Source: Candidatus Multivoradales bacterium
GTDB lineage: Bacteria; Acidobacteriota; Thermoanaerobaculia; Multivoradales; JAHEKO01
Assembly: GCA_965248055.1 (NCBI GenBank)
Contig: CBDFIJ010000004.1
Location: forward strand, 1,756,299 to 1,820,298
Direction: 5' to 3'
Length of the DNA stretch: 64,000 nucleotides
Positions 34,664 through 55,137 of the stretch are shown one piece after another. Position 1 is the first letter of the stretch; each line of letters begins with the position of its first letter. Both the position numbers and the translations under genes were made by a program. The notes beneath the pieces were generated by a model. It was not told the DNA's origin. It saw only the letters and a program-made list of their open reading frames with translations, and searched no databases.

Positions 34664-35101
34664 TCACCCCCGGGAAACCCAGGAGTGAATCTTGGCCCGC
34701 AGACGTTCGACCCGAGCAAGAACTCCCGGCCAGCGGCTGAGCGCCCGAAGAATAATTCGGTAGACCAACTCGCTGGCCAGAGAAAGAACCGCCGCTCCGG
34801 CAACAATAGTCAAAATCCCCTGGATACCTGGGAGAACTAGGCCGGCGATTCCAATCAGTAGCAACAACCAGCCGACGATCAGCAAGAGCACCCTGGTGAC
34901 CGTCGACAGCGGAGACAGCTTGCGATCCCCATCCGGCTTCACCGCCAGCTCCAAGGGAGAGTCCTCTGGATTCCCTCCAAAACTATTTTCCGGTACGGAC
35001 GGATCAGAGGTACCCAATTGGGTATCAGGGGACTCTTCGGTGCCATGGGCTGAAGAGGGCTGGGTTGCTGGCGGCCGGGTTGTTGGGGGTTGGCTCATTT
35101 G
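34664..35101 (-). CDS. PGPGW-type small transmembrane protein
   Basis: 'LVLPGIQGILTIVAGAAVL' is a PGPGW-family motif. The start was chosen at MSQPP. Confidence 0.5.
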   Translation of the reverse strand, partial: QMSQPPTTRPPATQPSSAHGTEESPDTQLGTSDPSVPENSFGGNPEDSPLELAVKPDGDRKLSPLSTVTRVLLLIVGWLLLLIGIAGLVLPGIQGILTIVAGAAVLSLASELVYRIILRALSRWPGVLARVERLRAKIHSWVSRG

Positions 35102-35235
35102 CAGTTTGCATCCTACGCACGAAATTCCATTCATCCAAGCGAAACCAACCTAATCGACGTCAGCTATTTTCCTCGCTTGGTTCCATCAACTTGTCTGTTG
35201 ACATCCTTTTTAGAAGTCGAAAGAATGTGTCAGGA

Positions 35236-35273: not shown

Positions 35274-35741
35274 ATGCACACTACCCGCGAACGACAACAG
35301 TTCATCCGAGGACTGCAGCAAAGGGGACACCGGGTCACTCCAGAGCGACTGGCTGTCTTCGACGCTGTCTTCGCTTTGCACGGCCATCTGGAGGTAGACC
35401 AGATCTATCAAAGGATGCAGCTGCACAACCATGGTGTCTCGCGCGCAACCTTGTATCGCAATCTTGAGGTACTGGAGCGTCTGGGTTTGGTGCGCAAGAT
35501 TCAAGCTGGCAACCGTCGGGTGCTCTACGAGCATCTACACGCTGGTCAAGATCATGGTCATTTGATCTGCCGCGAGTGTTCCCAAGTGATCGAATTCTTG
35601 AGTCCGGATGTCACACAAGCACTGGCTGCTCTTTGTCGCGAGCATGGCTTTGAAGAAAATGAAAACCAAGTCACCGTCCAGGGGTTGTGCGGAATCTGCG
35701 CAAGCTGGAGCGGTGAGACAAATCGAGCAGCTAGCGCCTAA
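35274..35741 (+). CDS. Fur-family metalloregulator (Fur, Zur or PerR type)
   Basis: 'HAGQDHGHLICRECSQVIEF' and C-terminal 'CGICAS' are Fur-family metal-site motifs. Confidence 0.8.
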   Translation: MHTTRERQQFIRGLQQRGHRVTPERLAVFDAVFALHGHLEVDQIYQRMQLHNHGVSRATLYRNLEVLERLGLVRKIQAGNRRVLYEHLHAGQDHGHLICRECSQVIEFLSPDVTQALAALCREHGFEENENQVTVQGLCGICASWSGETNRAASA

Positions 35742-35771: not shown

Positions 35772-37970
35772 ATGGATCTCGCAACTTGGGCATTGTTGAC
35801 CGCACTCGCGGCGAGCTCTGGCGCCACAGGAGAAGCCCCAGAGGCTCCCGTCGAGGAATCGATCGGAGAGGTACACGCTGTCTTTGACAACTTGACGGTG
35901 GTCGGCAGTGCCGAGACAGCGGGCGGCTCCGCCCATGTCATCGGGCAAGCCCAGTTGGAGGTACACAACTACAACGACGTTCACCGAGTGCTGCGGCAGG
36001 TTCCTGGAGTCAACATTCAAGAAGAAGATGGATTTGGTCTTCGACCCAACATTGGTATTCGAGGAACCGGCGTCGAACGGTCGCAAAAAATCACGTTGAT
36101 GGAGGACGGTGTCCTGATCGCCCCGGCGCCCTATGCAGCACCGGCCGCTTACTACTCTCCGACGGTCGGGCGGATGGAGAGCCTCGAGGTACGCAAAGGC
36201 ACCAGCGCCGTGCGGCAGGGTCCACACACAACCGGGGGGGTGATCAATTATCGTTCGACCAGTATCCCGGAGTCGTTTTCTGGAAAAGCGGAGCTAGCAC
36301 TCGGAACCGATGGTCTGCTCCGAACCCACGCCTATGCGGGCGACAGCAACCAGCGGCTTGGCTGGCTGGTCGAGGGATATCAACTATCCAGCGATGGCTT
36401 CAAGCAGCTCGATACCGCCGACAGTACCGGGTTTGACCTGACCGATCTGGTTGCCAAGTTTCGTCTCTCTTCTCGATCCGATGCCAAGATCTATCAAGCG
36501 GCTGAACTCAAGCTGGGCTGGAATCAGCAAGACGGAGCCGAGACCTATCTCGGTCTTACCGCCGAAGACTTTGAACGCACTCCGTATCGGCGTTACGCCG
36601 GTTCGTCGGCCGATCGCATCGACACGGAACACAATCAGTTTCAGCTATCGTATTTCGCTCAGCTCTCGCCTCGTTTCGACCTAACCGCGGTCGTCTATAA
36701 CAATGAATTTTCGCGCAACTGGCACAAGTTGCAGTCGGTAAATGGACTTGGATTGAATGCCGTCTTGAACGATCCGCAGAACCACTCGGCGGAGATTTCC
36801 GTTCTTCGTGGAGATCTCAACGCGGTCGACAGTCTCTCGGTACGCAACAACCGGCGCGACTACTTCTCGCGCGGCGTGAGCGCATCGCTAGGAGCACACG
36901 TTGACGGACGGATTCGCCACGACCTGGAAGTTGGCGTACGAGTGCATCGCGATGAAGAGGATCGTTTTCAAGAGGAAGACCTCTACAACATGAGCTTTGG
37001 ACAACCCTTGTTGTCTTCACTGGGGGCCCCCGGGAGTCAGTCCAACCGAGTTGCCTCCGCCAACGCAATCGCGGTTTTTTTTGAAGATAGCTTTTCTTTT
37101 GGAAAATGGACCGTAACGCCAGGAGCCCGCTACGAGGTCATCGATCTGGAGCGCCAGGACTATGGACGATCCGATCCCGTTAGAGGAAGTGAGCCAAGGT
37201 CGACGACCAATCGGGTCCGCCAACTGGTTCCCGGAGTCCGGGTGCAACACGTAGTCAATGAACGCAATTTGTGGTTCGCCGGCCTCTACCAAGGTTTCTC
37301 TCCGCCAACCCCGGGATCGAACGAACGGGTCGAGCCCGAGGAAAGCGACAACATTGAAATCGGCTGGCGCTATTCCGGACGCAAGCTAGCGGCCGAAGTC
37401 ACCGGTTTCTACTCAAACTATGGCAACCTGCTTGGCACCGACACGCTCTCAAGCGGTGGTGATGGCACCGGCAACCAGTTCAACGGCGGCAGTGCCTTGG
37501 TGCAAGGACTGGAAGCCGCCGCGACGTGGGAACTGCGACCTTCCCAGTCGGCGCAAGTGCCTCTTCGCTTGGTCTATACCTACACCGACACGGAGTTTCT
37601 CTCCAGTTTTGAAACCAACTTTGCCGACTGGGCGCCTCAAGTGGAACGTGGAGACGAACTCCCGTATGTGCCCAAGCATCAACTGACCCTGGGGGCTACC
37701 TGGAATAGCCCACGTTGGTCGGTTGGCATCGACGGTAACTTGAACGGGGCGATGCGTACCCTTGCTGGCGCTGGCGCAATCCCGTCTGACAGTGGGATCC
37801 CCAGTCGTTGGACCTGGGATCTGGCGATCGAGCGCGACCTGAGCTCTTACCGTCTGTTTCTCCAGGTGCGCAACCTAACCGATAACACCTATTTGGTGGC
37901 GCGGCGACCCGCCGGACTCCGCCCGGGGATGCCAAGAACCGTGGTGGTCGGAGTAAAGGTCGACTTCTAG
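35772..37970 (+). CDS. TonB-dependent outer-membrane receptor
   Basis: Plug domain and a 22-strand barrel with a C-terminal '...VVVGVKVDF' aromatic terminus. The start lies 30 bp after the Fur-family gene. Confidence 0.9.
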   Translation: MDLATWALLTALAASSGATGEAPEAPVEESIGEVHAVFDNLTVVGSAETAGGSAHVIGQAQLEVHNYNDVHRVLRQVPGVNIQEEDGFGLRPNIGIRGTGVERSQKITLMEDGVLIAPAPYAAPAAYYSPTVGRMESLEVRKGTSAVRQGPHTTGGVINYRSTSIPESFSGKAELALGTDGLLRTHAYAGDSNQRLGWLVEGYQLSSDGFKQLDTADSTGFDLTDLVAKFRLSSRSDAKIYQAAELKLGWNQQDGAETYLGLTAEDFERTPYRRYAGSSADRIDTEHNQFQLSYFAQLSPRFDLTAVVYNNEFSRNWHKLQSVNGLGLNAVLNDPQNHSAEISVLRGDLNAVDSLSVRNNRRDYFSRGVSASLGAHVDGRIRHDLEVGVRVHRDEEDRFQEEDLYNMSFGQPLLSSLGAPGSQSNRVASANAIAVFFEDSFSFGKWTVTPGARYEVIDLERQDYGRSDPVRGSEPRSTTNRVRQLVPGVRVQHVVNERNLWFAGLYQGFSPPTPGSNERVEPEESDNIEIGWRYSGRKLAAEVTGFYSNYGNLLGTDTLSSGGDGTGNQFNGGSALVQGLEAAATWELRPSQSAQVPLRLVYTYTDTEFLSSFETNFADWAPQVERGDELPYVPKHQLTLGATWNSPRWSVGIDGNLNGAMRTLAGAGAIPSDSGIPSRWTWDLAIERDLSSYRLFLQVRNLTDNTYLVARRPAGLRPGMPRTVVVGVKVDF

Positions 37971-38077
37971 CGCCGCTCCCCACTTGTCCTGGGACGCCGG
38001 CTCAAGCTGGTTGTGGCAAGATGCCAATTCTTCAGCAACCGGCTTGAAGAGACTGCCGATTCCTCGGGATCGCGATT

Positions 38078-39688
38078 ATGACGAAGAGTCCATCAAAACC
38101 CCGCAAGAGAGCCCCCTATTGGTTGGCAGTGTTCGGCCTGGCGCCAATCTTATTTGCGCCCGTTCCAGCTTTTTTGCGATACCACGGCTGGTCTGTCCTC
38201 ACCATAGATGGACTTGTCCTGGGTCTCATCTGTTTCGCAACTGCCGCATTTTTGTTTCTTATACCTGGCACTCGACGACGCCTATCGTTGAGCGGTGTTT
38301 ACGCTCTCGCGACTCTCTTTTTTTTCGACTTCCAGTTTCAAGCTCTTACCGGTTGGATCACTCTTGCCGGAGCCTTCGGCCTTGTTTTCACAGTCTGTTT
38401 CGGGCTGTTTGAAAAACTTCCGCAATTGACCACCTTTGTCTTCGGCTTGATGAGTCTTTTGGCTTTGTTCTCAGTTCCTAATAGTGACCATCGCGCTGTC
38501 GCTGGGGACCCAAACCTGCCACCGATCGTTTACTTGATCGTCGATGAGCACCTCGGAGTTGGCGGAATTCCAGCACTGGGTCGAGGTCCGGAAATCCAAG
38601 AAATGTTGCGCGATGCGTACATCCAACGGGGATTTAGGATCTACGAAAATGCATACTCTCTCCACGATATGACCCAACACTCCATTGCCTCCATCCTCAA
38701 CGGCTCGGACCGATCCGACGGGTTGGTTGAACCGGGACAGACCTCGAAGTGGAAGGTGACGAAGTCCCGTTTATTGAAACGTTGGGCCGACCAGGGTTAC
38801 CGGATCAATGTCTACCAATCAGACGCGCTCAACCTTTGCGATCTGCGAGAGGTAGAAATCGATTCCTGCTACACCTACAGCGTTTGGAGCCTGACCGGAA
38901 TCCTGGAAGGCTTGCCGTGGTATTCCCGGGAGCGGACCACTAGTGTCCTGTTGGCGATGGCGAACAGATCGCAGATCTTCTCCAAAGCGCGTAGTCAATA
39001 TAACAAGTTCGCGGAGCGTTCTCCGTCACTACCCGAGTGGCCCATTCGTGCTCGACCCCCAGGACCTCTGGCGATTCTTTCAGCCACCAAGGCCCTCCGC
39101 CAAGACTTGGCAAGGCAACCTAGGGGCCATGTCTTTCTTGCTCACTTGCTCCATCCACACTTTCCTTATGTCTACAACCAAGACTGCAGTGTTAAGCCAA
39201 AAGACGAATGGACTGCGCCGAAATGGAACAGGAAGGGCCGGATGCGTGACATGCGCAAAATTAGAGAAGATAACTACCCTGCTTACTTCGATCAGTTGGA
39301 GTGCGCCACGGTGATGGTAAACAAGTTGATTGATGAGATCGGAGAGCAGCCGGAGTTCCACGACGCAACGTTGATCGTTCATGGCGACCATGGCTCCCGT
39401 ATTTGGGTCAAAAAACCACTCACCTATAACAGACCAAGCGAACAAGACCTTATCGATAGCTTTTCCACCCACTTGGCGATCCGGGGCCCAGGCGTTACGC
39501 CTGGCGCCAACCTTCAGCCGGTGTCTGTCAACCAGGCAATCGCCAAGCACTGGGGTCTTCCTCTAAGACTTGAAGATAAGCCCGGGCTGTACGCAAGGCC
39601 GAACCGGAACCAGTTTCCAAGACCCAAGCTTGCTCTACCAGAAATCTGGCGTGACTCAATCACCGATACAATGGATCAGCCAGACTAA
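38078..39688 (+). CDS. Membrane enzyme paralog A: five transmembrane helices plus an alkaline-phosphatase-superfamily (LtaS/EptA/sulfatase-like) catalytic domain
   Basis: Five N-terminal transmembrane helices. Then 'PIVYLIVDEH' (metal-site acidic residue), 'YENAYSLHDMTQHS' (candidate Thr nucleophile about 45 residues later), 'LLHPHFPY' and 'IVHGDHGSR' (Asp-His metal site). Confidence 0.7.
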   Translation: MTKSPSKPRKRAPYWLAVFGLAPILFAPVPAFLRYHGWSVLTIDGLVLGLICFATAAFLFLIPGTRRRLSLSGVYALATLFFFDFQFQALTGWITLAGAFGLVFTVCFGLFEKLPQLTTFVFGLMSLLALFSVPNSDHRAVAGDPNLPPIVYLIVDEHLGVGGIPALGRGPEIQEMLRDAYIQRGFRIYENAYSLHDMTQHSIASILNGSDRSDGLVEPGQTSKWKVTKSRLLKRWADQGYRINVYQSDALNLCDLREVEIDSCYTYSVWSLTGILEGLPWYSRERTTSVLLAMANRSQIFSKARSQYNKFAERSPSLPEWPIRARPPGPLAILSATKALRQDLARQPRGHVFLAHLLHPHFPYVYNQDCSVKPKDEWTAPKWNRKGRMRDMRKIREDNYPAYFDQLECATVMVNKLIDEIGEQPEFHDATLIVHGDHGSRIWVKKPLTYNRPSEQDLIDSFSTHLAIRGPGVTPGANLQPVSVNQAIAKHWGLPLRLEDKPGLYARPNRNQFPRPKLALPEIWRDSITDTMDQPD

Positions 39689-39745
39689 GACGCCGCGTCG
39701 GCTGGACGCTAACGCACTCCAAAGAAACTCCCGACTAAGAGAATC

Positions 39746-39943
39746 ATGATGAGATTCGACACCTCAAGAAACACTGCGTTTGTGATCGCAGCAGTGCTGA
39801 CCATCTGCTTGTTAATTCCGACGCCAAGCTACGCATATCTAGGCCCTGGCACCGGAGGTAGGACCTGGGATCTGGCGATCGAGCGCGACCTGAGCTCTTA
39901 CCGTCTATTTCTCCAGGTGCGCAACCTAACCGATAACACCTAG
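39746..39943 (+). pseudogene. Truncated mini-gene: signal peptide and YLGPGTGG, then fused in-frame to a duplicated copy of the TonB-receptor 3' end
   Basis: The first 38 codons parallel the intact mini-gene at 41769. After 'GTGG' the sequence becomes the copy of 37810..37970 and reads '...RTWDLAIERDL...'. Confidence 0.6.
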
Positions 39944-40021
39944 TTGGTAGCGCGGCGACCCGCCGGACTCTGCCCTGGGATGCCAAGAACCGTGGTGGCC
40001 GGAGCAAAGGTCGACTTCTAG
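39861..40021 (+). repeat. 161-bp duplicate of the 3' end of the TonB-receptor gene (37810..37970), 154 of 161 nt identical
   Basis: Direct nucleotide comparison shows 7 mismatches, one of which creates a premature stop (tatttgg to tagttgg). Confidence 0.9.
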
Positions 40022-40121
40022 ACGCCTGCAAGCGATTGTCGCGAAGCGATCCGTATCTGTGGCAAAATCGAGCGGTTCGGATATTTTGAATAGGGACGCC
40101 CCCGTCCTTGGGATCGCGATT

Positions 40122-41750
40122 ATGACGAAAATGCCATCAATGGCCATAAGGCAGGCACCCTTTAGGTTGGCAGTCGTTGGCCTAGCGCTGATTCTCTTTG
40201 CCCCGATTCCAGCCTTTCTGAGGCATCAAGAGTGGTCCGCGATCAATATCGACGGGGCCATCCTAGGACTACTTTGTCTCGCGATAGCCACACTGGTATT
40301 TCTTATCCCTGGAAGTCGGGGGCGAATCGGATTGAGCACTATCTATGCTCTAGCCATTCTCTGGTTCGTAGATTTTCAATTCCAAATGTTTTCGAGTTGG
40401 ATAGCCTTCGCTGCAGGGTCTGTCGTTGCTTTCGCAGTCTGCGTTGCCCTGTTTGAAAAGCTATCGGAACTAGCAACATTCGTCTTCGGCTTGATGATTC
40501 TTCTGTCATTGATTCCTGTGCGCAGCCGTGACCGCGAGGTAGGCGTAAGCGATCAACGGCTCCCACCGATTGTCTATTTAATCCTTGACGAACACATTGG
40601 GGTTGCAGGTGTTCCCGCTATCGAGCGTGGCCCCGAGATTCAAGAATTATTGCGTCGCGAGTACCTCCAGCGCGGGTTTCGAATCTACGAGAACGCGTAT
40701 TCACTACACGACTTCACTCACCATTCGCTCGCTTCGGTTCTCAACGCCAGTGACCGCAGCGATGGTTTCCTTCTGCCAGGAAAAAAAACCTGGCAGTGGG
40801 GAGTCCGCAAATCTAGTGTGTTGAGACACTGGGTAGATCAAGGATACCGCCTCCGAATCTATCAATCAGACTGGCTGGATCTATGTAACTTGGAGGGAAT
40901 CAAAGTGGAATCTTGCTTCACCTACAGTGCCTGGAGTATTAGCAATCTGGTGGAATATCCGTGGAATTCGGTTGAACGAACTAGTGGGATTCTTGTCGTC
41001 ATAGCGAATCGCTCACAAATTCTTCTTAAGATTCGCGGTTGGTATGACAGCCTTTCCAAGCAGGGTTTTGGAGGCTTGAACCTTCCAATGTGGCCGGTAC
41101 GAGCTAGCCGACCGGGTGCCTTGGTCGTCCGTTCCGCGACCAAGGTATTGCAACACGATCTTGAGTCCAATCCGCGGGGAACCGTTTTTCTCGCTCACCT
41201 GCTACATCCTCATTCTCCTTATGTATATGACGCCAACTGTGGGGTAAAGCCCAAAGGTGATTGGGCGGCACCATCGCTAGATCGAAAAGGTAAGGTAAGG
41301 GCTCTGCGGGAGAGCCGGACGACTCACTATCGTGATTACTTCGATCAGCTCGAGTGTCTAACCACCCAGATAGGAGAGCTAATTGATGCGATTGGTGAAA
41401 GTACCGAGTTGAGAGATGCGACTGTTCTAATCCACGGTGATCATGGGTCTCGTCTTTGGGTCAAACCACCGCGTACCTACAACAAGCCTACTGAAAGAGA
41501 CTTGTTGGATACTTTCTCAACTTTTCTTGCTGTTCGCGGCCCAATGATCCAGCCCGAACTCAATATTGAACCTGTACCCGTAAATCAAATTGTCGCCGAA
41601 CTCGCGGAGGTTCCGTTTGTTCTTCATGACGGTCCCGCGCCATACTCACGACCGAACTACTATGATCCTCCTCGTCACAAGTTGCCCCTTCCGTCGATCT
41701 GGCGGACATCGAACAACACACCTAAGGTCCGTCCGAAAACCCTCAACTAG
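40122..41750 (+). CDS. Membrane enzyme paralog B, same architecture as A (about 55 to 60% identical)
   Basis: Same motifs: 'PIVYLILDEH', 'YENAYSLHDFTHHS', 'LLHPHSPY' and 'LIHGDHGSR'. The start was chosen at MTKMPS, because the sequence gggatcgcgattATGACGAA is conserved with paralog A. Confidence 0.7.
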   Translation: MTKMPSMAIRQAPFRLAVVGLALILFAPIPAFLRHQEWSAINIDGAILGLLCLAIATLVFLIPGSRGRIGLSTIYALAILWFVDFQFQMFSSWIAFAAGSVVAFAVCVALFEKLSELATFVFGLMILLSLIPVRSRDREVGVSDQRLPPIVYLILDEHIGVAGVPAIERGPEIQELLRREYLQRGFRIYENAYSLHDFTHHSLASVLNASDRSDGFLLPGKKTWQWGVRKSSVLRHWVDQGYRLRIYQSDWLDLCNLEGIKVESCFTYSAWSISNLVEYPWNSVERTSGILVVIANRSQILLKIRGWYDSLSKQGFGGLNLPMWPVRASRPGALVVRSATKVLQHDLESNPRGTVFLAHLLHPHSPYVYDANCGVKPKGDWAAPSLDRKGKVRALRESRTTHYRDYFDQLECLTTQIGELIDAIGESTELRDATVLIHGDHGSRLWVKPPRTYNKPTERDLLDTFSTFLAVRGPMIQPELNIEPVPVNQIVAELAEVPFVLHDGPAPYSRPNYYDPPRHKLPLPSIWRTSNNTPKVRPKTLN

Positions 41751-41768
41751 CAATCGCAGGAGAATAAA

Positions 41769-42014
41769 ATGACGTCCTTCAGCTCAAGGAATATGACAGC
41801 CCCAACCTTGGTAGCAGTTGCCCTGTGTCTACTACTATCCCCTACCCCTGGGCATGCATATCTAGACCCTGGCACCGGAGGTATGGCGATTCAGGCGTTG
41901 ATCGCCATCCTCGCCGGAACCTGGCTCGCCATCCGGCTTTTTTGGTCGAGAATCGTTAGATTTTTCAAGCCAAAAGGATCTGATTCGGCATCGCCAGATT
42001 CAGAATCATCGTAG
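41769..42014 (+). CDS. Mini-protein: signal peptide, Y-L-D-P-G-T-G-G, one transmembrane helix, then a basic and acidic tail
   Basis: 81 aa. 'MTAPTLVAVALCLLLSPTPGHA' followed by 'YLDPGTGGMAIQALIAILAGTWLAIRLFWSRIVRFFKPK'. There is a paralogous truncated copy after paralog A. Confidence 0.55.
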   Translation: MTSFSSRNMTAPTLVAVALCLLLSPTPGHAYLDPGTGGMAIQALIAILAGTWLAIRLFWSRIVRFFKPKGSDSASPDSESS

Positions 42015-42057
42015 CGGAAGACTCTGGTTTTCAAGCCTTTCTTGATTCTCTTCCTCA

Positions 42058-43455
42058 ATGTATAACCCTGTGGAAACTGGCCTCCCTGAAGCTGAAGGGG
42101 GATCGTTTCGCGACCCTCGCGGCCACGTTCATATTGCCAACGGGCGGGTTTTTCGCACCATCTCTCCAGCCGCTTTGGACGACTTCCGTATGGTTGTCGA
42201 ATCCGGAGTGGTCGCCAAGCTCGAAGAGTCTGGCGATCTGGTACCGACCTGGGAGACGGATCAAGCAACCCCGAACACTACCGGTGACGCCAGTGTGGTC
42301 GTTGAGCATCCCTGCTTACCACTCATCAGCTACCCCTACGAATGGCCTTTTCAGCTGCTCAAACGAGCCGCATTGTTTCATCTCGACTTTCATCTCAAGT
42401 GCTTGGAGCACCGGGTGACCCTGACCGATGCGACGGCCTACAACGTCCAGTTTGTCGGGGTACGACCCGTTTTCATCGATCGCTTAGCTCTCAAACCCTA
42501 TTTCGAGGGCGAGTACTGGGCTGGGTATCGTCAGTTTTGCGAGCAGTTTCTCAATCCGCTGCTCCTGTCGTCTTTTCACGGAATCCCAATCCATCAGTGG
42601 TATCGGGGCTCGATTGAGGGAATCTCTGCTCGTGATACCGCCACCCTACTTCCACTGAAACGACGACTATCTCCTCGAGCTTGGATGCACGTGACACTTC
42701 AGGCCCGCCTCAATCGCGAACAGACTGCCCAAGTCTCCGACCGGGTCATCAAGCAACGCCCCTTGCCGCTCCCCGCTCTTCAGAGCATGCTACGGAGCTT
42801 CCACAAGTGGATCTCCCGATTGCAACCTCCTCAACGACCCACCGTTTGGGCAGACTACGACTCCACCCACGGATATACCGATACCGAGCAAGAGAAGAAA
42901 GCTAAAGCGATCGCGCGGTTTATCGAGGGCCACAAGCCAACAACCGTTTGGGACCTGGGTTGCAATACCGGGTTTTACTCGCAGATCGCATTGCAGCACG
43001 GAACGTCCTCAGTGATCGGACTGGACCTGGATGAAGGGGCCTTGGGAGGGGCTTTTGATCGCGCTCAATCCGAAAACCTAACCCTGACACCTTTGTTGTT
43101 CGACGCCGCCAACCCAACCCCGGCACAAGGATGGCGTCTGCGGGAGCGCAGCAGACTCGCTGAACGCTCAACCCCGGATGGCATTCTTGCCTTGGCAGTC
43201 CTGCACCATATGGTCTTAGGCCGCAATATCCCGCTACCGGAGGCGATCAAGTGGCTGGTGGGTCAAGCGAAGTGTGGCGTCATCGAGGCGGTACCCCGCA
43301 CCGACCCACAAGTGAAGCGGATGATGGTCTTTCGAGACCATCATCATGAATATGGGGTTGAAGAGATACGCCAGGAGCTGGCAAGGCAAGCCACCGTCAC
43401 AGAAACCGTCGTGGTATCGGAGTCAGGTCGAGAGTTGTTGTTTTTCAAGCGCTAG
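42058..43455 (+). CDS. Uncharacterised 465-aa protein with a C-terminal class-I SAM-dependent methyltransferase fold
   Basis: 'VWDLGCNTGFYS' is motif I, followed by 'VIGLDLDE'. The N-terminal roughly 270 aa are unrecognised. Confidence 0.6.
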   Translation: MYNPVETGLPEAEGGSFRDPRGHVHIANGRVFRTISPAALDDFRMVVESGVVAKLEESGDLVPTWETDQATPNTTGDASVVVEHPCLPLISYPYEWPFQLLKRAALFHLDFHLKCLEHRVTLTDATAYNVQFVGVRPVFIDRLALKPYFEGEYWAGYRQFCEQFLNPLLLSSFHGIPIHQWYRGSIEGISARDTATLLPLKRRLSPRAWMHVTLQARLNREQTAQVSDRVIKQRPLPLPALQSMLRSFHKWISRLQPPQRPTVWADYDSTHGYTDTEQEKKAKAIARFIEGHKPTTVWDLGCNTGFYSQIALQHGTSSVIGLDLDEGALGGAFDRAQSENLTLTPLLFDAANPTPAQGWRLRERSRLAERSTPDGILALAVLHHMVLGRNIPLPEAIKWLVGQAKCGVIEAVPRTDPQVKRMMVFRDHHHEYGVEEIRQELARQATVTETVVVSESGRELLFFKR

Positions 43456-44681
43456 AATGCGGAGTCCACGACCACTTTGACAAATCGCCTCTTGCCCACC
43501 TTGACCACATAACCGGAGAGATTGTCTGGCAATTCAACCCGAGGGTCTTGGGCTCTTTCACCGTCGATCGACACCGCGCCCTGCTGAACCAACCGTTGAG
43601 CCTCTTTGTTGGAGGACGCCAGCCCCGCGAAGGTAAGTGCTTTAAACAGTTGCATCGGAACGATCGAGACCTGTGGAATGTCTTCCGGAATGCCTCCGTC
43701 GGAAAACACTTCGCCAAACTCTCGGGCCGCTTGGTCCGCCACCGAATCGCCATGCAGATCTGCAGTTAGCGTCTGCGCCAATTGACGCTTGGCGTCCATC
43801 GGATGGAGATCGCCCTCGGAGACTCGATCCTTCAAGGCTTCAATCTCCACCTCTTGTAGATCGGTCAATAATAGCCACCAATCCCACATCTGCTGATCGG
43901 AGATCGACATCGTCTTGCCATAGACCTCCGCCGGCGGGTCGGTCAACCCGATCGCATTGCCGAGACTCTTGGACATTTTGTCGACGCCGTCAGTGCCTAC
44001 CAACAGCGGCACAGTCAAGACCACTTGAGGTTCCATGCCTTCCTCTTTCATCAACTGACGACCTACCAGTAGATTGAAGATCTGGTCGTGACCGCCCAAC
44101 TCAACGTCTGCTTTCATGGCAATCGAGTCGTAGCCTTGAACCAAGGGATAGAGCAACTCGTGGATACTGATCGGCTGGTTTGCCGCGAAACGAGTACGAA
44201 AGTCGTCACGCTCCATCATCCGCGCCAAGGTGTAGCGACCAGCGAGCCGAATCAGCCCTTCTGACCCCAACTCGTCGAGCCACCTGGAGTTGTAGTCAAT
44301 CGTGGTTTGCTCTCGATCCAGAATGCGCACCACTTGCTCTTCATAGGTGCGGGCGTTGGTTAGCACCTCTTGGGCAGTGAGTTGAGGCCGGGTGGCCTTC
44401 TTGCCCGTCGGGTCGCCTATTCGTGCAGTGAAGTCGCCAACCAGAAAGACCACTGAGTGTCCTAAATCTTGGAAGTGCTTCATCTTGCGCAGCAAGACGG
44501 TGTGCCCGAGATGAAGATCAGCCGTTGAAGGATCAAAGCCAGCCTTGATCGTCAGCGGCTGGCCAGACTTGCGCGACGCCTCCAGCTTGCGCGCAAACTG
44601 CTCGGAATTAATCAGGTCAACCGAACCCCGACTGAGCAGGGCTAGCTGCTGCTCAACTGGAAGAAACTCCGAATTAGACAC
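43452..44681 (-). CDS. tyrS: Tyrosyl-tRNA synthetase
   Basis: 'HLGH' and 'KMSKSLGN' class-I motifs, with a C-terminal S4-like domain. 409 aa. Confidence 0.9.
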   Translation of the reverse strand: MSNSEFLPVEQQLALLSRGSVDLINSEQFARKLEASRKSGQPLTIKAGFDPSTADLHLGHTVLLRKMKHFQDLGHSVVFLVGDFTARIGDPTGKKATRPQLTAQEVLTNARTYEEQVVRILDREQTTIDYNSRWLDELGSEGLIRLAGRYTLARMMERDDFRTRFAANQPISIHELLYPLVQGYDSIAMKADVELGGHDQIFNLLVGRQLMKEEGMEPQVVLTVPLLVGTDGVDKMSKSLGNAIGLTDPPAEVYGKTMSISDQQMWDWWLLLTDLQEVEIEALKDRVSEGDLHPMDAKRQLAQTLTADLHGDSVADQAAREFGEVFSDGGIPEDIPQVSIVPMQLFKALTFAGLASSNKEAQRLVQQGAVSIDGERAQDPRVELPDNLSGYVVKVGKRRFVKVVVDSAF

Positions 44682-44901
44682 CGCAGGAGCTTAGCATCGG
44701 CCAAGCAAATCACTACCAAGAGGAACAGATACGTCGGCTACAGGTACGTGAACACCATTGGGATGTCGAGCCTAGATCCAGAGCCTGAGGTGCTGGGTCT
44801 ACGACGACTGTCGAGTGTGCTGACGATATTACCAAGCGAAGAGTCGGGACCGTTCGCGGGGACATTGATTAGCAGCGATAGCTCCTGAGGCAGAGGCAAC
44901 G

Positions 44902-46270
44902 GAGTTATTGTCAAAAGTTGTGTATTGAGCCATCAGGCGGCGATCTGTTTTTGTTTTTCTCCGTCCACGAACTGGAGACCTTCAACGACTTCGGCAATGC
45001 GCCTGTAGCCCTGTAGCCTCCGCCATCGTTTTTCTGCGCTTTGGCACAGCTTGAAGACCATCGAGAGCATGGTTTCTCGCGACAGACAGCCCCGGGTTTT
45101 GGAGGTTCTCAAGCGTACGGTAGCAAAAGTTGATGCGATTGGGTTGGTGGTCCTCAAATGCACCCAGTGCTCAGCCGGGAAATCGTAGAAAGCGAGTAGC
45201 TGGACGCGATCTTTGACCAAGCACTGGACTGCTTTCGGATATTTAGCTTGGTAGATTGCCTGGAATGCATCAAAAGCCCTCTCGGCATCGTGACGTGTCT
45301 GCGCCATCCAGATTTGGTGGATTGCCTGCTTGGCCTTGGGCTGGATCGCCTTGGGGAGCTTATTCAAGACGTTGGCCGTCTTGTGGACCCAGCAGCGCTG
45401 GGTCTTGGTATTTCCCCACACCTGAGCCAGAGCCTTCCAGAAACCCAGATTGCCGTCACCGATTGCGATCTTAGGCTCGAATGTAAGGCCTCTTGCTTCC
45501 AGGCCTCGCAACAGCTCCAGCCATGACGCCTCACTCTCCCGGTAACCGTCTTCAACAGCGATCAGTTCTTTGTTGCCGTCCGCAGTGGCACCAATTAACA
45601 CCAGCAAGCAGAGCTTGGCGTTATCCAGGCGAGCCTTGCAGTAAATGCCGTCAGCCCATACATAGACGTAGCGCTTGGACGAAAGATCGCGCTGCCGCCA
45701 TTCGCTGTACTCCTGGCCCCAGACGCGTTTGAGGCGGCTCACCGTCGAAGACGAAAGACCTGGCGCTTCAGGGCCCACCAAAGCTTCCAGAGCTCGTGAG
45801 AAGTCCCCGGTAGAAATCCCCCGTAAGTATAGCCAGGGCAAGAGATCCGCGATGCTCTTGGACCGGCGCAGATACGGTGGCACTAGATTGGAGCGAAAAT
45901 GAAGCTCACCCTGGCGATCCCGCACCCGTGGCACTTTGACCGAAATGCCGCCGATTCCGGTCTGGATCTCCCGCTCTGGCATGTAGCCGTTTCTCACCAA
46001 CCGCCGGTGACCGACCGCCGTACGTTGATCTTGGTACTCAACCAAAAAACTCTCCACCTCTGCCTCGATTGCTTCGCAAAGAAGCAACCGTGAACCTCGG
46101 CGCAAGACCTCGGTCAGAGCGTCCTCAGGACGCTCTACTTGATCGATTGAAACTACGTTACTCTTGCTCAACGGCGTGTCCTCCTTTTGGGATGATTGAA
46201 CCCAGCTTTGAAAACCGGGCTCAGGATACGCCGCCTTCAAACTCTCATACACAACTTTTGGTTATATCTC
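44902..46270 (-). mobile_element. IS256-family insertion sequence, intact, flanked by a 9-bp direct repeat GAGGCAACG (44893..44901 and 46271..46279)
   Basis: Terminal inverted repeats GAGtTATtgtCAAAAGTTGTGTAT and ATACACAACTTTTGgttATAtCTC. A perfect 9-bp flanking duplication is visible in the sequence. Confidence 0.85.
44933..46252 (-). CDS. IS256-family (mutator-type) transposase
   Basis: 439 aa, with an '...WADGIYCKAR...' DDE region and an IS256-like N-terminus. Confidence 0.85.
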   Translation of the reverse strand: MYESLKAAYPEPGFQSWVQSSQKEDTPLSKSNVVSIDQVERPEDALTEVLRRGSRLLLCEAIEAEVESFLVEYQDQRTAVGHRRLVRNGYMPEREIQTGIGGISVKVPRVRDRQGELHFRSNLVPPYLRRSKSIADLLPWLYLRGISTGDFSRALEALVGPEAPGLSSSTVSRLKRVWGQEYSEWRQRDLSSKRYVYVWADGIYCKARLDNAKLCLLVLIGATADGNKELIAVEDGYRESEASWLELLRGLEARGLTFEPKIAIGDGNLGFWKALAQVWGNTKTQRCWVHKTANVLNKLPKAIQPKAKQAIHQIWMAQTRHDAERAFDAFQAIYQAKYPKAVQCLVKDRVQLLAFYDFPAEHWVHLRTTNPIASTFATVRLRTSKTRGCLSRETMLSMVFKLCQSAEKRWRRLQGYRRIAEVVEGLQFVDGEKQKQIAA

Positions 46271-46496
46271 GAGGCAACGTGGTTGACCCCACATGCACAA
46301 CATCTCTTAACTATCGTTGCATTCCGCGGCACCACGGTTACATCTCGGTACAATTAATCAAGGATCTGGCAATATGTGTAGTGGACCTGCATGAAAACCA
46401 ATCGCCGGTTCGCCCGTCTTCGTCCGTTGCAGACATTCCAAGTGCGAGCACTAATAAGGTTCTTCGTCTTGATGCCAAGGTCTCCTAGGAGTCCCG

Positions 46497-48068
46497 TTGA
46501 CTGACAGCAAACGTAGCTCCACTTCACCGAAGATCTCCTTCTGGACAGCTGTTCTCGCGCTAGCCCTGATTCTTTTCGCTGTCTTCCCACCGTTTTTTCG
46601 TCACCATGGCTTGTCGTTTCTAAGCCTGGAGCTTGTCGCTTTCGCCTTGATCTGCGGTTTTTTATCTAGCGTACTTCACCTCATCCCCGCGACTAGAACG
46701 CGGTGGTTTTCAAGCACAATCTTGGGTGCTGCCTTGACTCTGCTTATCGACATTCAATTCGGTTCGATCTCAAGCGAGCTTTCTCTGATCGGACATCTCT
46801 TCGTCACAACGGGTGTTTGCGTACTTTTGTTTCCCCATGCTCATCGAGTGCTCACGGCGTTCGCTGGAGTTCTTATCCTGCTTTCTCCAACCGTGGCCAC
46901 CAAAAGCACCAGCACTCCCAGTCACCACCAGATCGAACGAGACACTTCGTTGCCGCCGATTGTCTATCTGATTCTCGATGAACACATCGGCATAGGAGGT
47001 ATCTCCAATCAGTTTGTACAAGAGCGCACCAAGATTCTCGGTGAATACATACAACGGGGATTCCTAGTCTACGAAAACGCTTACTCACTGCACGACATGA
47101 CTCTTGCATCCATGGGATCTCTTCTTAATGCCCGCCCGACAGTTGAGCATGCGATCGAAGGCAATCGTCAAGAAGGCTTCTCTTTATCGAAATCTGTACT
47201 CTTTCGGTATTGGGCAGATCTAGGATATCGCTTCTCTATCTATCAATCTGAGTATCTTGATTACTGCTCTGCAGCAAAACCGGCGGTCGACCTCTGCATA
47301 ACCTACGATCAATACATTGGGCTCGACGTTCTGAAACCTCTTGAGACCATCGACTACACGGTCACCGCACTATTCTCAAGATCCGAGATTGCTATGAAAG
47401 GAAGGGTCCGTTACAACTTTCTACGTAACAAGGTACCCCAGTCGATACGGCCGCCACGATTGCCTCCGCCGCCAACCGGCTCTTGGGCGGCAAGATCTCG
47501 TGTCGCATTGGATGAGATGCGCAAACAGGCGCTTGTCGACCCAGAAGGAAGAGTATTCTTTGCACACCTACTCCATCCGCACAAACCGCACATCTATGAC
47601 CAGGAGTGCCGCCCAAGGAGGTCGACGAGGTCGTCGATCCTTTCGTCTTCGCATTACATGGACCAAGTGTTGTGCATTACAAAGCAGCTCGGCGAAACCC
47701 TTGACGAATTGCTCTCGCTCCCTTCATTCAAAGATGCTGTGGTAGTTGTCCACGGAGATCACGGTCCTAGGCTTATGGGGGATCTTGCGCTCAATGGTGA
47801 CAAGGAGATCCCACAGGAATTCATCATTGATAGGTTTTCAACATTCCTTGCGATAAAGACACCTGAAGTTGCTTCTGGTATAACTCGGTTTCCCACTTCG
47901 ATCAACTCAGAAATTCCTGCAATTTGGTCTATACCCAACTCCGTACCCCACAAACCTATGCTTCAATTGACCCAAAACCTTATGACGGTTGAGTCACTGA
48001 CAGATCGGAAAGTGCAGGCCATCAACCTTCCGGATTTTTGGGGTTTATCGGTGTCCATGAAGCCTTGA
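46497..48068 (+). CDS. Membrane enzyme paralog C (about 35 to 40% identical to A and B), TTG start
   Basis: 'PIVYLILDEHIGIGG', 'YENAYSLHDMT', 'LLHPHKPH' and 'VVHGDHGPR'. RBS 'aggag' 8 nt before the TTG. Confidence 0.65.
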   Translation: MTDSKRSSTSPKISFWTAVLALALILFAVFPPFFRHHGLSFLSLELVAFALICGFLSSVLHLIPATRTRWFSSTILGAALTLLIDIQFGSISSELSLIGHLFVTTGVCVLLFPHAHRVLTAFAGVLILLSPTVATKSTSTPSHHQIERDTSLPPIVYLILDEHIGIGGISNQFVQERTKILGEYIQRGFLVYENAYSLHDMTLASMGSLLNARPTVEHAIEGNRQEGFSLSKSVLFRYWADLGYRFSIYQSEYLDYCSAAKPAVDLCITYDQYIGLDVLKPLETIDYTVTALFSRSEIAMKGRVRYNFLRNKVPQSIRPPRLPPPPTGSWAARSRVALDEMRKQALVDPEGRVFFAHLLHPHKPHIYDQECRPRRSTRSSILSSSHYMDQVLCITKQLGETLDELLSLPSFKDAVVVVHGDHGPRLMGDLALNGDKEIPQEFIIDRFSTFLAIKTPEVASGITRFPTSINSEIPAIWSIPNSVPHKPMLQLTQNLMTVESLTDRKVQAINLPDFWGLSVSMKP

Positions 48069-48111
48069 ATACTCGTGTTGCTGCCCAAAGCCACTTCGTT
48101 ACCTTAGTTCG

Positions 48112-52783: not shown

Positions 52784-53758
52784 CTAACTTTCCTTCACCG
52801 TCATGGTTTCCGCTATCGAATTCACGGTGGGTTCCGGTTCAATCTTGGCGCGCGGATGACTCTTGCGATACACGTGTAGCAGCCGGTCGATATCGACATG
52901 GGTGTAGCGTTGCGTGGTGCTCAAGGAGGCGTGGCCCAACAACTCTTGAATGGTGCGCAAATCCGCGCCTGCTTCCAGCAAGTGAGTGGCAAAACTATGG
53001 CGCATGGTGTGAGGGTGGACTCCCCCAGCTAGCGACGAGGACTCCACATACTGATCGAGAATGCGCCGTACCGAGCGCGCTGTCAACCGCCCACCACGTT
53101 GATTGACGAAGACGCATTGATCATCGTCCCAAGGTCGGCCGGCTAGCACCTGCCATGCTTCCTGCCATTGGCGCAGAGTTTGCGCAGCCGGTTTGCCATA
53201 GGGGACCATGCGTTCCTTGCCACCTTTCCCCACCACCCGCAACGTCCTGCCTCCGGGCTCAAGATCTTTCCAGTTGAGGGAAACCAATTCGCCAACGCGT
53301 AGACCGGTGGCATAGAGCAACTCCAACATAGCTCGATCGCGCCGCGAAACAGGCAGATCCCCCTCGGGAGCCTCGAGCAGCACATTCATCTCAGCGGGTC
53401 GCAAATGGCGTGGCAACTTGCGTTCGCTACGTGGCGTCTTGATGGCTTCGGCTGGACTGGCCTCAAGCACCCCTTCGCGACAGGCAAAGCGAAACACCCC
53501 CTTGAGCGCTGACAAGGTCCGGCCCTGGCTGCTGCGAGCGTTTCCGGAAAGGGCCAAATGAGCCAGAAATGCCCGCAGCGCCATCGCGTCGACTTCCACC
53601 ACCTTGATCTCGGTCAGCTTCTTCTCAAAGTAGTCCCGAGATAGAAATTTCGACAATCGGCGCAGATCACCTTCGTAGGCACGAATGGTGTTTTCTGCCA
53701 GGCGGCGTTCTCCTGCCAAATAATCCAAATAGCGAAATACCAACCGGGGAAGATTCAT
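52784..53758 (-). CDS. xerC: Tyrosine site-specific recombinase XerC/XerD
   Basis: '...RRDRAMLELLYATGLRVGEL...HTMRHSFATHLLEAGADLRTIQELLGHASLSTTQRYTHV' carries the R-H-R-Y catalytic residues. The start was chosen at MNLPRL. Confidence 0.9.
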   Translation of the reverse strand: MNLPRLVFRYLDYLAGERRLAENTIRAYEGDLRRLSKFLSRDYFEKKLTEIKVVEVDAMALRAFLAHLALSGNARSSQGRTLSALKGVFRFACREGVLEASPAEAIKTPRSERKLPRHLRPAEMNVLLEAPEGDLPVSRRDRAMLELLYATGLRVGELVSLNWKDLEPGGRTLRVVGKGGKERMVPYGKPAAQTLRQWQEAWQVLAGRPWDDDQCVFVNQRGGRLTARSVRRILDQYVESSSLAGGVHPHTMRHSFATHLLEAGADLRTIQELLGHASLSTTQRYTHVDIDRLLHVYRKSHPRAKIEPEPTVNSIAETMTVKES

Positions 53759-55137
53759 GTTTGGACCGCTCGCACAGGTTGCTCGACAGCACTGTCCGTC
53801 TCCACCGCAAAATGGTAGGGCAGGCCGTTGGTCGCAGCCCACTGCGCCAGGTGCTGTCGGGCGCGGGCGGCATATGCCGGCCTTCGATCTCGCTTGCGCA
53901 ATCGCTGATTGAGCGCGGGAAACAGACCGAAGTTGATATTGGACGGCTGGTATCTCTGCGGTGAAGAAAGGGTCAGATGCCGCGCTAGAGCCCCGAGTGC
54001 GGTCTCATCAGGAATCAAAGGCAACCGCGTCCCGGCAAGCTCGGCTGCCAGATACAGGCCGACCGCCAGCCCGGTGGCGGACGATTCCAGATAGCCCTCG
54101 ACACCGGTGATCTGTCCGGCAAAGCGGATCTGTGGTTGCGCCTGCAGAGCATACCTGGGGCCAAGATGACGCGGTGCGTTGATGTAGGTGTTGCGATGCA
54201 CCTGCCCCATGCGCACAAACTCCGCCGACTCCAGCCCAGGGATCATCCGTAGCACGCGTTTCTGATCCCCCCACTTGATGCGGGTCTGAAACCCCACTAG
54301 GTTGAACTGGGTTCGGGCGACATCCTCGCGCCGCAACTGAACCACCGCGTAGGGCTTGGACTCACTATCCCAAACATCGTCCGGTGGCTCCAGTCCCACC
54401 GGTTTCATCGGGCCAAAACACAGCGTCTGCACTCCCCGGCGAGCGATCTCTTCCAGCGGCAAGCAACCCTCAAAAAAGAGCTTGGCCTCAAAGTTATGAA
54501 GTTCCGCAGTTTCAGCTCGTAATACAGCGTCAACAAACCGCTGGTAAAGATCCTGGTCCATCGGGCTATTCAGGTAGTCATCACCGTTGCCTTTACCGTA
54601 GCGCGAGCCCCAAAACATCTTCGACAGATCTAAAGACTCGGCGCTGACGATCGGCGCGATCGCGTCATAGAAATAGAGCGACTGCTCGCCCAGAAGCTCC
54701 CGCAATTGGCTGCTCAACGCTTCGCTGGTCAGTGGTCCGGTGGCGATCACCACCGGCCCGTCAGGAATCTCGGTCAGCTCTTCACGCCGCAGCGTGATCC
54801 GAGGATGATTATCGATCGCTGCAGTGACCTTCGCGGAAAATTGGTAGCGGTCCACCGCCAACGCCCCACCAGCTGCCACCGCTGATTGACGCGCCGTCGG
54901 AATCACCAGCGACCCCAACGCCTCCATCTCTCGCTTCAACAGCCCAGCAGGGTGGTTGGGATCATCTGAGCGCAGTGAATTCGAACACACCAACTCCGCC
55001 AAATCCCCGGTCTTGTGTGCTGGCGTCGACCGCTCGGGTCGCATCTCCCACAGATCCACCTCAAACCCGCGCTCAGCAACCTGAAACGCGCACTCCGTCC
55101 CGGCCAACCCGCCGCCGATAATAGTGAGATCAGGCAT
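53755..55137 (-). CDS. trmFO: Methylenetetrahydrofolate-tRNA-(uracil54-C5)-methyltransferase TrmFO
   Basis: 'LTIIGGGLAGTECA' FAD motif and the GidA-related TrmFO core. About 460 aa. Confidence 0.85.
   Translation of the reverse strand: MPDLTIIGGGLAGTECAFQVAERGFEVDLWEMRPERSTPAHKTGDLAELVCSNSLRSDDPNHPAGLLKREMEALGSLVIPTARQSAVAAGGALAVDRYQFSAKVTAAIDNHPRITLRREELTEIPDGPVVIATGPLTSEALSSQLRELLGEQSLYFYDAIAPIVSAESLDLSKMFWGSRYGKGNGDDYLNSPMDQDLYQRFVDAVLRAETAELHNFEAKLFFEGCLPLEEIARRGVQTLCFGPMKPVGLEPPDDVWDSESKPYAVVQLRREDVARTQFNLVGFQTRIKWGDQKRVLRMIPGLESAEFVRMGQVHRNTYINAPRHLGPRYALQAQPQIRFAGQITGVEGYLESSATGLAVGLYLAAELAGTRLPLIPDETALGALARHLTLSSPQRYQPSNINFGLFPALNQRLRKRDRRPAYAARARQHLAQWAATNGLPYHFAVETDSAVEQPVRAVQT

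Follow-up and report, generated by a model that had tools for sequence, protein, structure and literature searches.

The stretch analysed here, 64,000 nucleotides of contig CBDFIJ010000004.1 from Candidatus Multivoradales bacterium (hereafter the window), carries two divergent gene cassettes in tandem, separated by a damaged second copy of the 3′ end of a TonB-dependent receptor (TBDR) gene. The receptor gene itself (35772..37970, + strand, 732 aa; Pfam Plug and TonB_dep_Rec_b-barrel) is intact and is a backbone gene paired with fur. Downstream of it, all on the + strand, lie an intergenic region (igA, 37971..38077), paralog A (38078..39688, 536 aa), a truncated mini-gene (A′, 39746..39860), the receptor-tail copy (tail 2, 39861..40021), a second intergenic region (igB, 40022..40121), paralog B (40122..41750, 542 aa, 56% identical to A), an intact mini-gene (mini-gene B, 41769..42014, 81 aa) and a methyltransferase-like (MT-like) gene (42058..43455, 465 aa, with a weak class-I methyltransferase signature). 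Paralog A combines N-terminal membrane helices with a sulfatase-like domain of the alkaline-phosphatase superfamily (Pfam PF00884, E = 2e-9). Mini-gene B specifies a signal peptide, a YLDPGTGG motif, one transmembrane helix and a basic tail; A′ retains codons 1–38, with the signal peptide and an AYLGPGTGG motif, and lost its transmembrane helix at the joint with the receptor tail. The MT-like gene is the third gene of a conserved module, here called X-mini-MT, in which X stands for the sulfatase-like enzyme. B, mini-gene B and the MT-like gene are thus a complete module, and A with its broken mini-gene is an extra unit.

The two receptor tails are strikingly alike. A base-by-base count over 37810–37970 and 39861–40021 gives 154 identical positions of 161 (95.7%, seven differences), in agreement with the 96% reported in a preliminary description of this DNA; a repeat search delimits the pair as 37807–37970 and 39858–40021 (164 nt, 95% identity, offset 2051), and blastn extends it to 37807–37975 and 39858–40026 (94.7%, E = 6e-72). 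The repeat corresponds to receptor codons 680–732, that is, to 53 sense codons plus the stop, and not to 54 codons plus stop as had been stated. Tail 1 (37810..37970, + strand) is the end of the functional gene, with weak similarity running on to 37975 and residues that match the conserved C-terminus of receptor homologs, and it is either the source or the sister of the repeat. In tail 2 (+ strand) the similarity stops at the stop codon, or 5 nt beyond it if a 1-nt indel is allowed. This copy is evidently decaying, since it carries a nonsense change at a tyrosine conserved in all homologs and an arginine-to-cysteine change at an invariant arginine; its first 46 nt beside the joint contain no differences at all. 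Tail 1 has changed as well, because at one valine/alanine site it is tail 2 that has the state found in four of the five nearest relatives. The ratio of synonymous to non-synonymous differences between the tails (3 to 4) fits every model and does not discriminate among them. We found no promoter or terminator sites in either tail and rejected such a role for the tail, as site counts were no higher than in shuffled sequence. A third copy of the tail was not found by blastn within the window, the right end of the island described below included.

The joint itself (39860..39861, + strand) can be read directly from the sequence and its alignment: mini-gene ...GGAGGTA is joined to GGACCTGG... of the receptor with no demonstrable microhomology, fusing mini-gene codon 38 in frame to receptor codon 680. 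The copy begins directly after codon 38 (...G-T-G-G), as the preliminary description had it, and the chimeric open reading frame (ORF) that results (39746–39943) is ended, also as described there, by a mutation-derived stop, a TAT-to-TAG change at 39941–39943. The chimeric ORF is 65 codons long. The two units, 37810–39860 (2051 bp) and 39861–41883 (2023 bp), stand head to tail and are colinear from end to end, with nothing extra between them. This is the layout of the single new joint expected of two head-to-tail units that each start at receptor codon 680 and stop at mini-gene codon 38, and it can be explained without any separate re-insertion of 161 bp. What the 161-bp repeat represents is one flank of a single joint made by illegitimate recombination, and not a free-standing re-insertion; the earlier proposal that the piece had been re-inserted is not borne out as worded, and would need two independent illegitimate joints.

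Away from the joint, the paralogs are far more diverged than the tails, as had been noted. A and B share 56% identity as proteins and 60% as DNA, and the best 161-nt window inside the genes reaches 69%. At 4-fold sites 71% of positions differ, against a saturation level of 0.745, which corresponds to d ~2.3 with a lower bound of ~1.4. With synonymous divergence (dS) saturated, the non-synonymous divergence (dN) is 0.33, and therefore both A and B are under purifying selection. No conversion-like patches were detected within the coding regions of A and B (P = 0.135 and 0.64). The intergenic regions have diverged likewise, again as previously described: the cores of igA and igB lie barely above shuffled controls (z = 2.3), and the two regions share only the motif TGTGGCAAnAT and a box at the start codon. 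This pre-ATG box (38061–38085 and 40105–40129, + strand), which begins in the last part of igA and igB and spans the A and B start codons, is identical at 24 of 25 positions, reads TCCT(C/T)GGGATCGCGATTATGACGAA and contains, directly before the ATG, the perfect palindrome ATCGCGAT; it is not present upstream of the third paralog, C. Both units accordingly open, as stated before, with a receptor tail, an intergenic region and the box GGGATCGCGATT-ATG. For the box, a translational or regulatory operator common to A and B is one possibility and a micro-conversion patch another.

The sequence immediately left of the joint shares the youth of the tail, a feature that goes beyond the preliminary description. 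Positions 39833..39860 (+ strand) of A′ are identical to mini-gene B (41856–41883) at 27 of 28 nucleotides, and in codons 30–38 all eight synonymous codons are identical, against a background of 0.35 (P = 2.4e-4). In codons 1–29, synonymous sites are saturated (2 of 10 codons identical) and 11 of 29 residues are identical. These same codons retain the start codon, an open frame and a canonical signal peptide, and the survival of these features through synonymous saturation means that A′ was under selection until recently. The helix removed from A′ follows the most conserved motif of the mini-gene family, AYLDPxTG(S/G) in the family alignment. Together, the ongoing decay of tail 2, the recent constraint on A′, the near-identity of codons 30–38 to mini-gene B and the unchanged first 46 nt of tail 2 argue that the joint is young. 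Divergence is ~0.04 substitutions per site on each side of it and at least ~1.4 synonymous substitutions per site between the cassettes. The present joint, being so much younger than the cassettes it separates, thus did not create A and B. Although the locus has the head-to-tail homologous units and the one new joint of a simple tandem duplication, its parts are not of equal age, and one duplication event is insufficient to explain tails 4.3% diverged beside A and B genes that differ at 71% of 4-fold sites. We are therefore confident that the locus holds a young illegitimate joint between old cassettes, flanked by dead fragments; the receptor-tail copy and the truncated mini-gene are non-functional, decaying by-products.

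Comparison with related genomes places this joint in a region with lineage-specific inserts. In two relatives that carry the closest receptor homologs on Mb-scale contigs (L171 and L172), citrate synthase, Fur and the TBDR are followed by 16–46 nt, then by a convergent dapF and the same backbone genes as in the window; in a more distant acidobacterial metagenome-assembled genome (MAG; L001) the order is TBDR, tyrS, dapF. The gaps between receptor and dapF span 37971–48111 in the window, 12188–12233 in L171, 12203–12218 in L172 and 9686–11048 in L001. That of the source genome thus holds ~10 kb, comprising an island, tyrS, an IS256-family insertion sequence and paralog C. The island (37971–43455), the block from A to the MT-like gene, is lineage-specific, which again adds to what had been described, and encodes only A, A′, B, mini-gene B and the MT-like protein. 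None of A, B, C, the mini-gene or the MT-like gene was present in any of the 160 receptor-related loci examined, metagenome loci included. A second lineage-specific insert, between tyrS and dapF, carries the insertion sequence (44902..46270, − strand; transposase 44933–46252, NCBIfam NF033543, E = 2e-94), with 24-nt imperfect terminal inverted repeats and no part in the joint, and paralog C (46497..48068, + strand, 523 aa), which is 35–38% identical to A and B in global alignment. The IS256 element lies directly upstream of C, which stands alone, lacking both a mini-gene and an MT partner. On the right, the island ends with the MT-like gene (+), which overlaps the convergent tyrS (−) by 4 nt at the stop codons (43452–43455), so that the island abuts tyrS without a spacer.

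Since tyrS occupies this gap in L001 and is missing from it in L171 and L172, the receptor–dapF gap appears, from these gene orders, to be an insertion and rearrangement hotspot. The earlier view of the locus as recombination-prone is strengthened by this hotspot and by the insertion sequence and third paralog nearby. Because the empty site measures only tens of bases, any insert must start beside the receptor stop, which would explain why the identity between the tails ends there. The same comparison bears on the age of the cassettes. Backbone divergence from the island-free relatives is d = 1.6–1.8, and the split between A and B is at least as old as the split from those relatives; the identity of C to A and B is lower than that of every backbone ortholog (53% or more). 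The old A/B split, the low identity of C to either paralog and the placement of C in a separate insert beside the IS256 element together favour repeated acquisition over duplication in place. No integrase or recombinase is among the genes encoded within the island; a Xer-like gene at 52784–53842 belongs to the backbone and occurs in L001, L171 and L172 as well. An origin by an integrative element or by insertion-sequence activity was rejected, given that there is no integrase and no third repeat, and that the IS256 element lies 5 kb away with its own inverted repeats.

We tentatively favour, at somewhat less than even confidence, a mechanism in which a recent illegitimate join stacked two old cassettes, in the manner of the homology-anchored displacement described for Rhs and type VI secretion system (T6SS) loci. 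Two anciently diverged versions of an X-mini(-MT) cassette would have met in the receptor–dapF hotspot and would have been stacked by illegitimate recombination that was additive and anchored in homology. The incoming DNA would have recombined at one end in a shared flank, either the receptor gene or the mini-gene/MT side, and joined illegitimately at the other, so that the resident cassette was pushed downstream, carrying with it its own copy of the last 161 bp of the receptor. In a close variant, a recent tandem duplication of the B unit would have been followed by replacement of the first copy with an A-type allele, from the receptor stop to mini-gene codon 29; such a sequence of events would account directly for the 28-nt patch. 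Illegitimate recombination facilitated by homology was put forward as the route by which divergent modules are stacked together with displaced 3′ ends of genes at the T6SS and Rhs loci of V. cholerae (PMC5361080); for the mechanism, that article cites de Vries & Wackernagel 2002, Prudhomme 2002 and Jackson 2009. Our preference for stacking derives from the hotspot, the separate insert holding C beside an insertion sequence, the old A/B split, the low identity of C to A and B, the lack of conversion patches in either paralog, and reports, discussed below, that concerted evolution rarely lasts long.

Several points weigh against recent stacking. It presupposes two divergent cassette versions beside nearly identical receptor genes, a dimorphism whose origin the model does not explain. 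In experiments, homology-facilitated illegitimate recombination is rare (PMC5361080). A and B are mutually closest among 5.8 billion proteins, and the search of these proteins and of genomes and contigs returned no orthologs of A, B or the mini-gene above 34% identity outside the source genome. In the collections searched, neither a donor nor a strain carrying one A-type or B-type cassette alone was found, A, B and C being confined to the source genome; nor did any collection searched contain strain-level or genus-level relatives. The motif TGTGGCAAnAT lies at +42 from the stop in igA and at +37 in igB, and the two regions are similar in length (P about 0.03), an arrangement that is more natural if the tail and the intergenic region were duplicated together in place; we gave this colinearity little weight, as it only marginally exceeds shuffled controls (z = 2.1–2.3). 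Base composition was also rejected as a marker of foreign origin. The GC content at 4-fold sites (GC4) of A, B and C is below that of the backbone (P = 1e-5 to 2e-11; gap 0.14–0.20), X-family genes are likewise below their neighbours, by 0.08–0.13, in all six other genomes examined (among L161–L169), and A and B do not differ significantly in composition (P = 0.23); low GC4 is thus family-wide and marks neither cassette as foreign. The pattern suggests habitual horizontal transfer of the X family or low-expression codon usage.

The most serious alternative, which we consider less probable than recent stacking though still well worth entertaining, starts from an old tandem duplication in place that included the receptor 3′ piece, followed by regional gene conversion and, recently, by a deletion from mini-gene codon 38 to receptor codon 680 that made the joint. 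The receptor fragment would have been overwritten repeatedly from the functional gene, and the stretch of mini-gene A from mini-gene B. Such a history requires no foreign DNA, agrees with A and B being each other's nearest relatives and with the weak colinearity of igA and igB from the stop codon on, and fits the location of the three near-identical patches (the 166-nt tail, the 25-nt pre-ATG box and the 28-nt mini-gene patch), all of which lie outside the bodies of the X genes. The tail is also far more similar than its flanking paralogous sequence, as expected of gene conversion, and tufA/tufB offer a precedent for a tract that stops where a gene does: there, bacterial gene conversion is processive, proceeds in walks of ~500 nt and may reach the end of the available homology (PMC5485169). 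We accordingly down-weighted an argument against conversion from the erosion of tract edges, because the tuf genes keep sharp gene-end boundaries despite long-term conversion. Against this history, conversion would have had to keep a dead fragment of 161 bp uniform while synonymous divergence rose to 1.4 or more, and long-lasting concerted evolution has been described as very rare (PMC6053082). With a nonsense change and an arginine-to-cysteine change at 4.3% divergence, the fragment is not under repair now. Homology for strand exchange is confined to the 166 nt itself, with the joint on the left and unrelated intergenic sequence on the right, so that no flanking homology would anchor conversion on either side, even if conversion of a whole tract is possible in principle (PMC5485169). 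The intergenic region beside the tail has not been homogenised, A and B contain no conversion patches, and the island, which is missing from L171 and L172, would have to be older than the split from these two or to have arisen shortly after it. Much less likely is a version with no deletion and with the original joint still in place; it fails to explain the preservation of the A′ signal peptide.

The re-insertion read from the preliminary description can be spelled out as an old A-mini-B-mini array into which a receptor-tail segment of ~166 bp was recently copied and pasted, at the expense of the old spacer and of mini-gene A's 3′ half, whether by template switching during replication or by tandem duplication followed by deletion. 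The high-identity segment is indeed abrupt at both edges, the joint is young, and homology of igA and igB over the first ~36 nt after the stop is not established, all of which would suit such an event. It would, however, require two independent recent illegitimate joints, of which the right-hand one would have fallen within 0–5 nt of the receptor stop by chance (an expectation of roughly 3% over 161 nt); it leaves the young 28-nt mini-gene patch on the left unexplained and turns the near-equal lengths of igA and igB and their block spacing into coincidence. We regard it as improbable. Of the original view of a recombination or gene-conversion scar, the layering of a young event on an old divergence stands, with gene conversion as a live though putative alternative. 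Still less probable is an assembly artefact, in which two strain variants or a chimeric read were stitched together and the joint exists in no cell. The source is a single 3.35 Mb contig whose read support is not established, and the relatives derive from low-coverage long-read metagenome assemblies. Yet the joint offers no shared k-mer or overlap to mislead an assembler (mini-gene ...GGAGGTA joined to GGACC...), and the tails differ at seven positions in a decay-like pattern that includes a nonsense change, whereas a collapsed or duplicated repeat would give identical copies.

The cassettes belong to a wider and largely uncharacterised family. Distant X homologs (24–34% identity) are always accompanied by proteins of ~75 and ~460 aa, although gene order varies (X-mini-MT-X in L168), and the module recurs in distant bacteria such as a Sphingomonadales MAG (loci L161, L162 and L164–L170). 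Its parts are the membrane-anchored sulfatase-like enzyme X (about 490–600 aa), a signal-anchored protein (~75 aa) in which A-Y is invariant and which carries a (L/I)D(P/G)xTG(S/G) motif, and a methyltransferase-like protein of ~460 aa. Neither the ~75-aa nor the ~460-aa partner has a Pfam family, and searches of solved structures and defence systems gave no match to the module beyond generic methyltransferase similarity. Searches of PADLOC and Pfam returned no toxin or immunity match, only sulfatase-like and methyltransferase-like domains.

Upstream of the joint, the gene order is conserved. The gene fur (35274–35741, + strand) precedes the receptor gene, and the order citrate synthase, Fur, TBDR is kept in L001, L005, L171 and L172. 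The nearest receptor homologs are 66–68% identical, and none above 68% was found in the collections searched; the match of the receptor to an NCBIfam siderophore-receptor subfamily falls below the cut-off of that model. Between citrate synthase and fur, a small ORF on the − strand (34664–35134) has a match in L005, a conserved neighbour found at the equivalent place (59% over 49 aa). In L171 and L172 that place is taken, in the same orientation, by a PGPGW-family gene (PF09656), and no direct match between it and the small ORF was found. The block of citrate synthase, this ORF, fur and the receptor may constitute a conserved iron-related neighbourhood in this acidobacterial group.

For annotation, the 65-codon chimeric ORF and the receptor-tail copy are pseudogene fragments and should not be called genes, and the gap between the receptor gene and dapF can be marked, for this acidobacterial lineage, as a probable insertion hotspot. 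Old as they are, A and B were brought together, or re-joined, only recently. The 161-bp direct repeats are predicted to allow RecA-dependent loss or amplification of the A unit. It is conceivable, though we think it rather unlikely, that the receptor 3′ end is a recurrent homology anchor that stacks divergent cassettes of an uncharacterised three-gene envelope module. If so, displacement-type arrays, so far known from polymorphic-toxin loci, would also build arrays of surface-modifying-enzyme paralogs, and the direct repeats could serve as a reversible switch for the loss or amplification of cassette A. Should displacement be the correct explanation for the locus, a mechanism of toxin–immunity arrays would extend to an unrelated, uncharacterised envelope-enzyme module.

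Among known arrangements, the locus resembles several in part. Some integrative elements, with attachment (att) sites at tRNA or protein-coding genes, duplicate the 3′ end of the gene they target and likewise leave a direct repeat of it downstream of the inserted DNA and an intact target; unlike them, the island has no integrase and no far-end repeat, and the 'element' would break off inside a gene. Regional concerted evolution, as in tufA/tufB (PMC5485169) and in a broader survey (PMC6053082), produces a similar segment that is sharply bounded, with its boundary at a gene end, but the recipient here is a dead 161-bp fragment that lacks flanking homology and is gaining inactivating changes. 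The join point of a tandem duplication has the same geometry, in which the end of one unit (mini-gene codon 38) meets the start of the next (receptor codon 680) with no added DNA; here, however, divergence is ~4% beside the joint and saturated in the unit interiors. The displacement or 'orphan module' arrays of Rhs, contact-dependent inhibition (CDI) and T6SS effector–immunity loci (PMC5361080) consist of an intact upstream gene, a module, a fragment of the upstream gene's 3′ end and a strongly divergent second module, an order that recurs here as TBDR, A, A′, tail 2, B, mini-gene B and MT-like gene. They share with this locus an illegitimate joint and a conserved upstream gene as the anchor. 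They differ from it in that the present locus has no toxin or immunity content and its upstream gene, which encodes a TonB-dependent receptor of the iron type, is not functionally linked to the cassettes; moreover, only two modules are present, and there are no homologs above 34% identity outside the source genome by which horizontal acquisition could be demonstrated. Taken together, these comparisons identify the locus as a fresh example of a known rearrangement scar and not as a new kind of genetic element.

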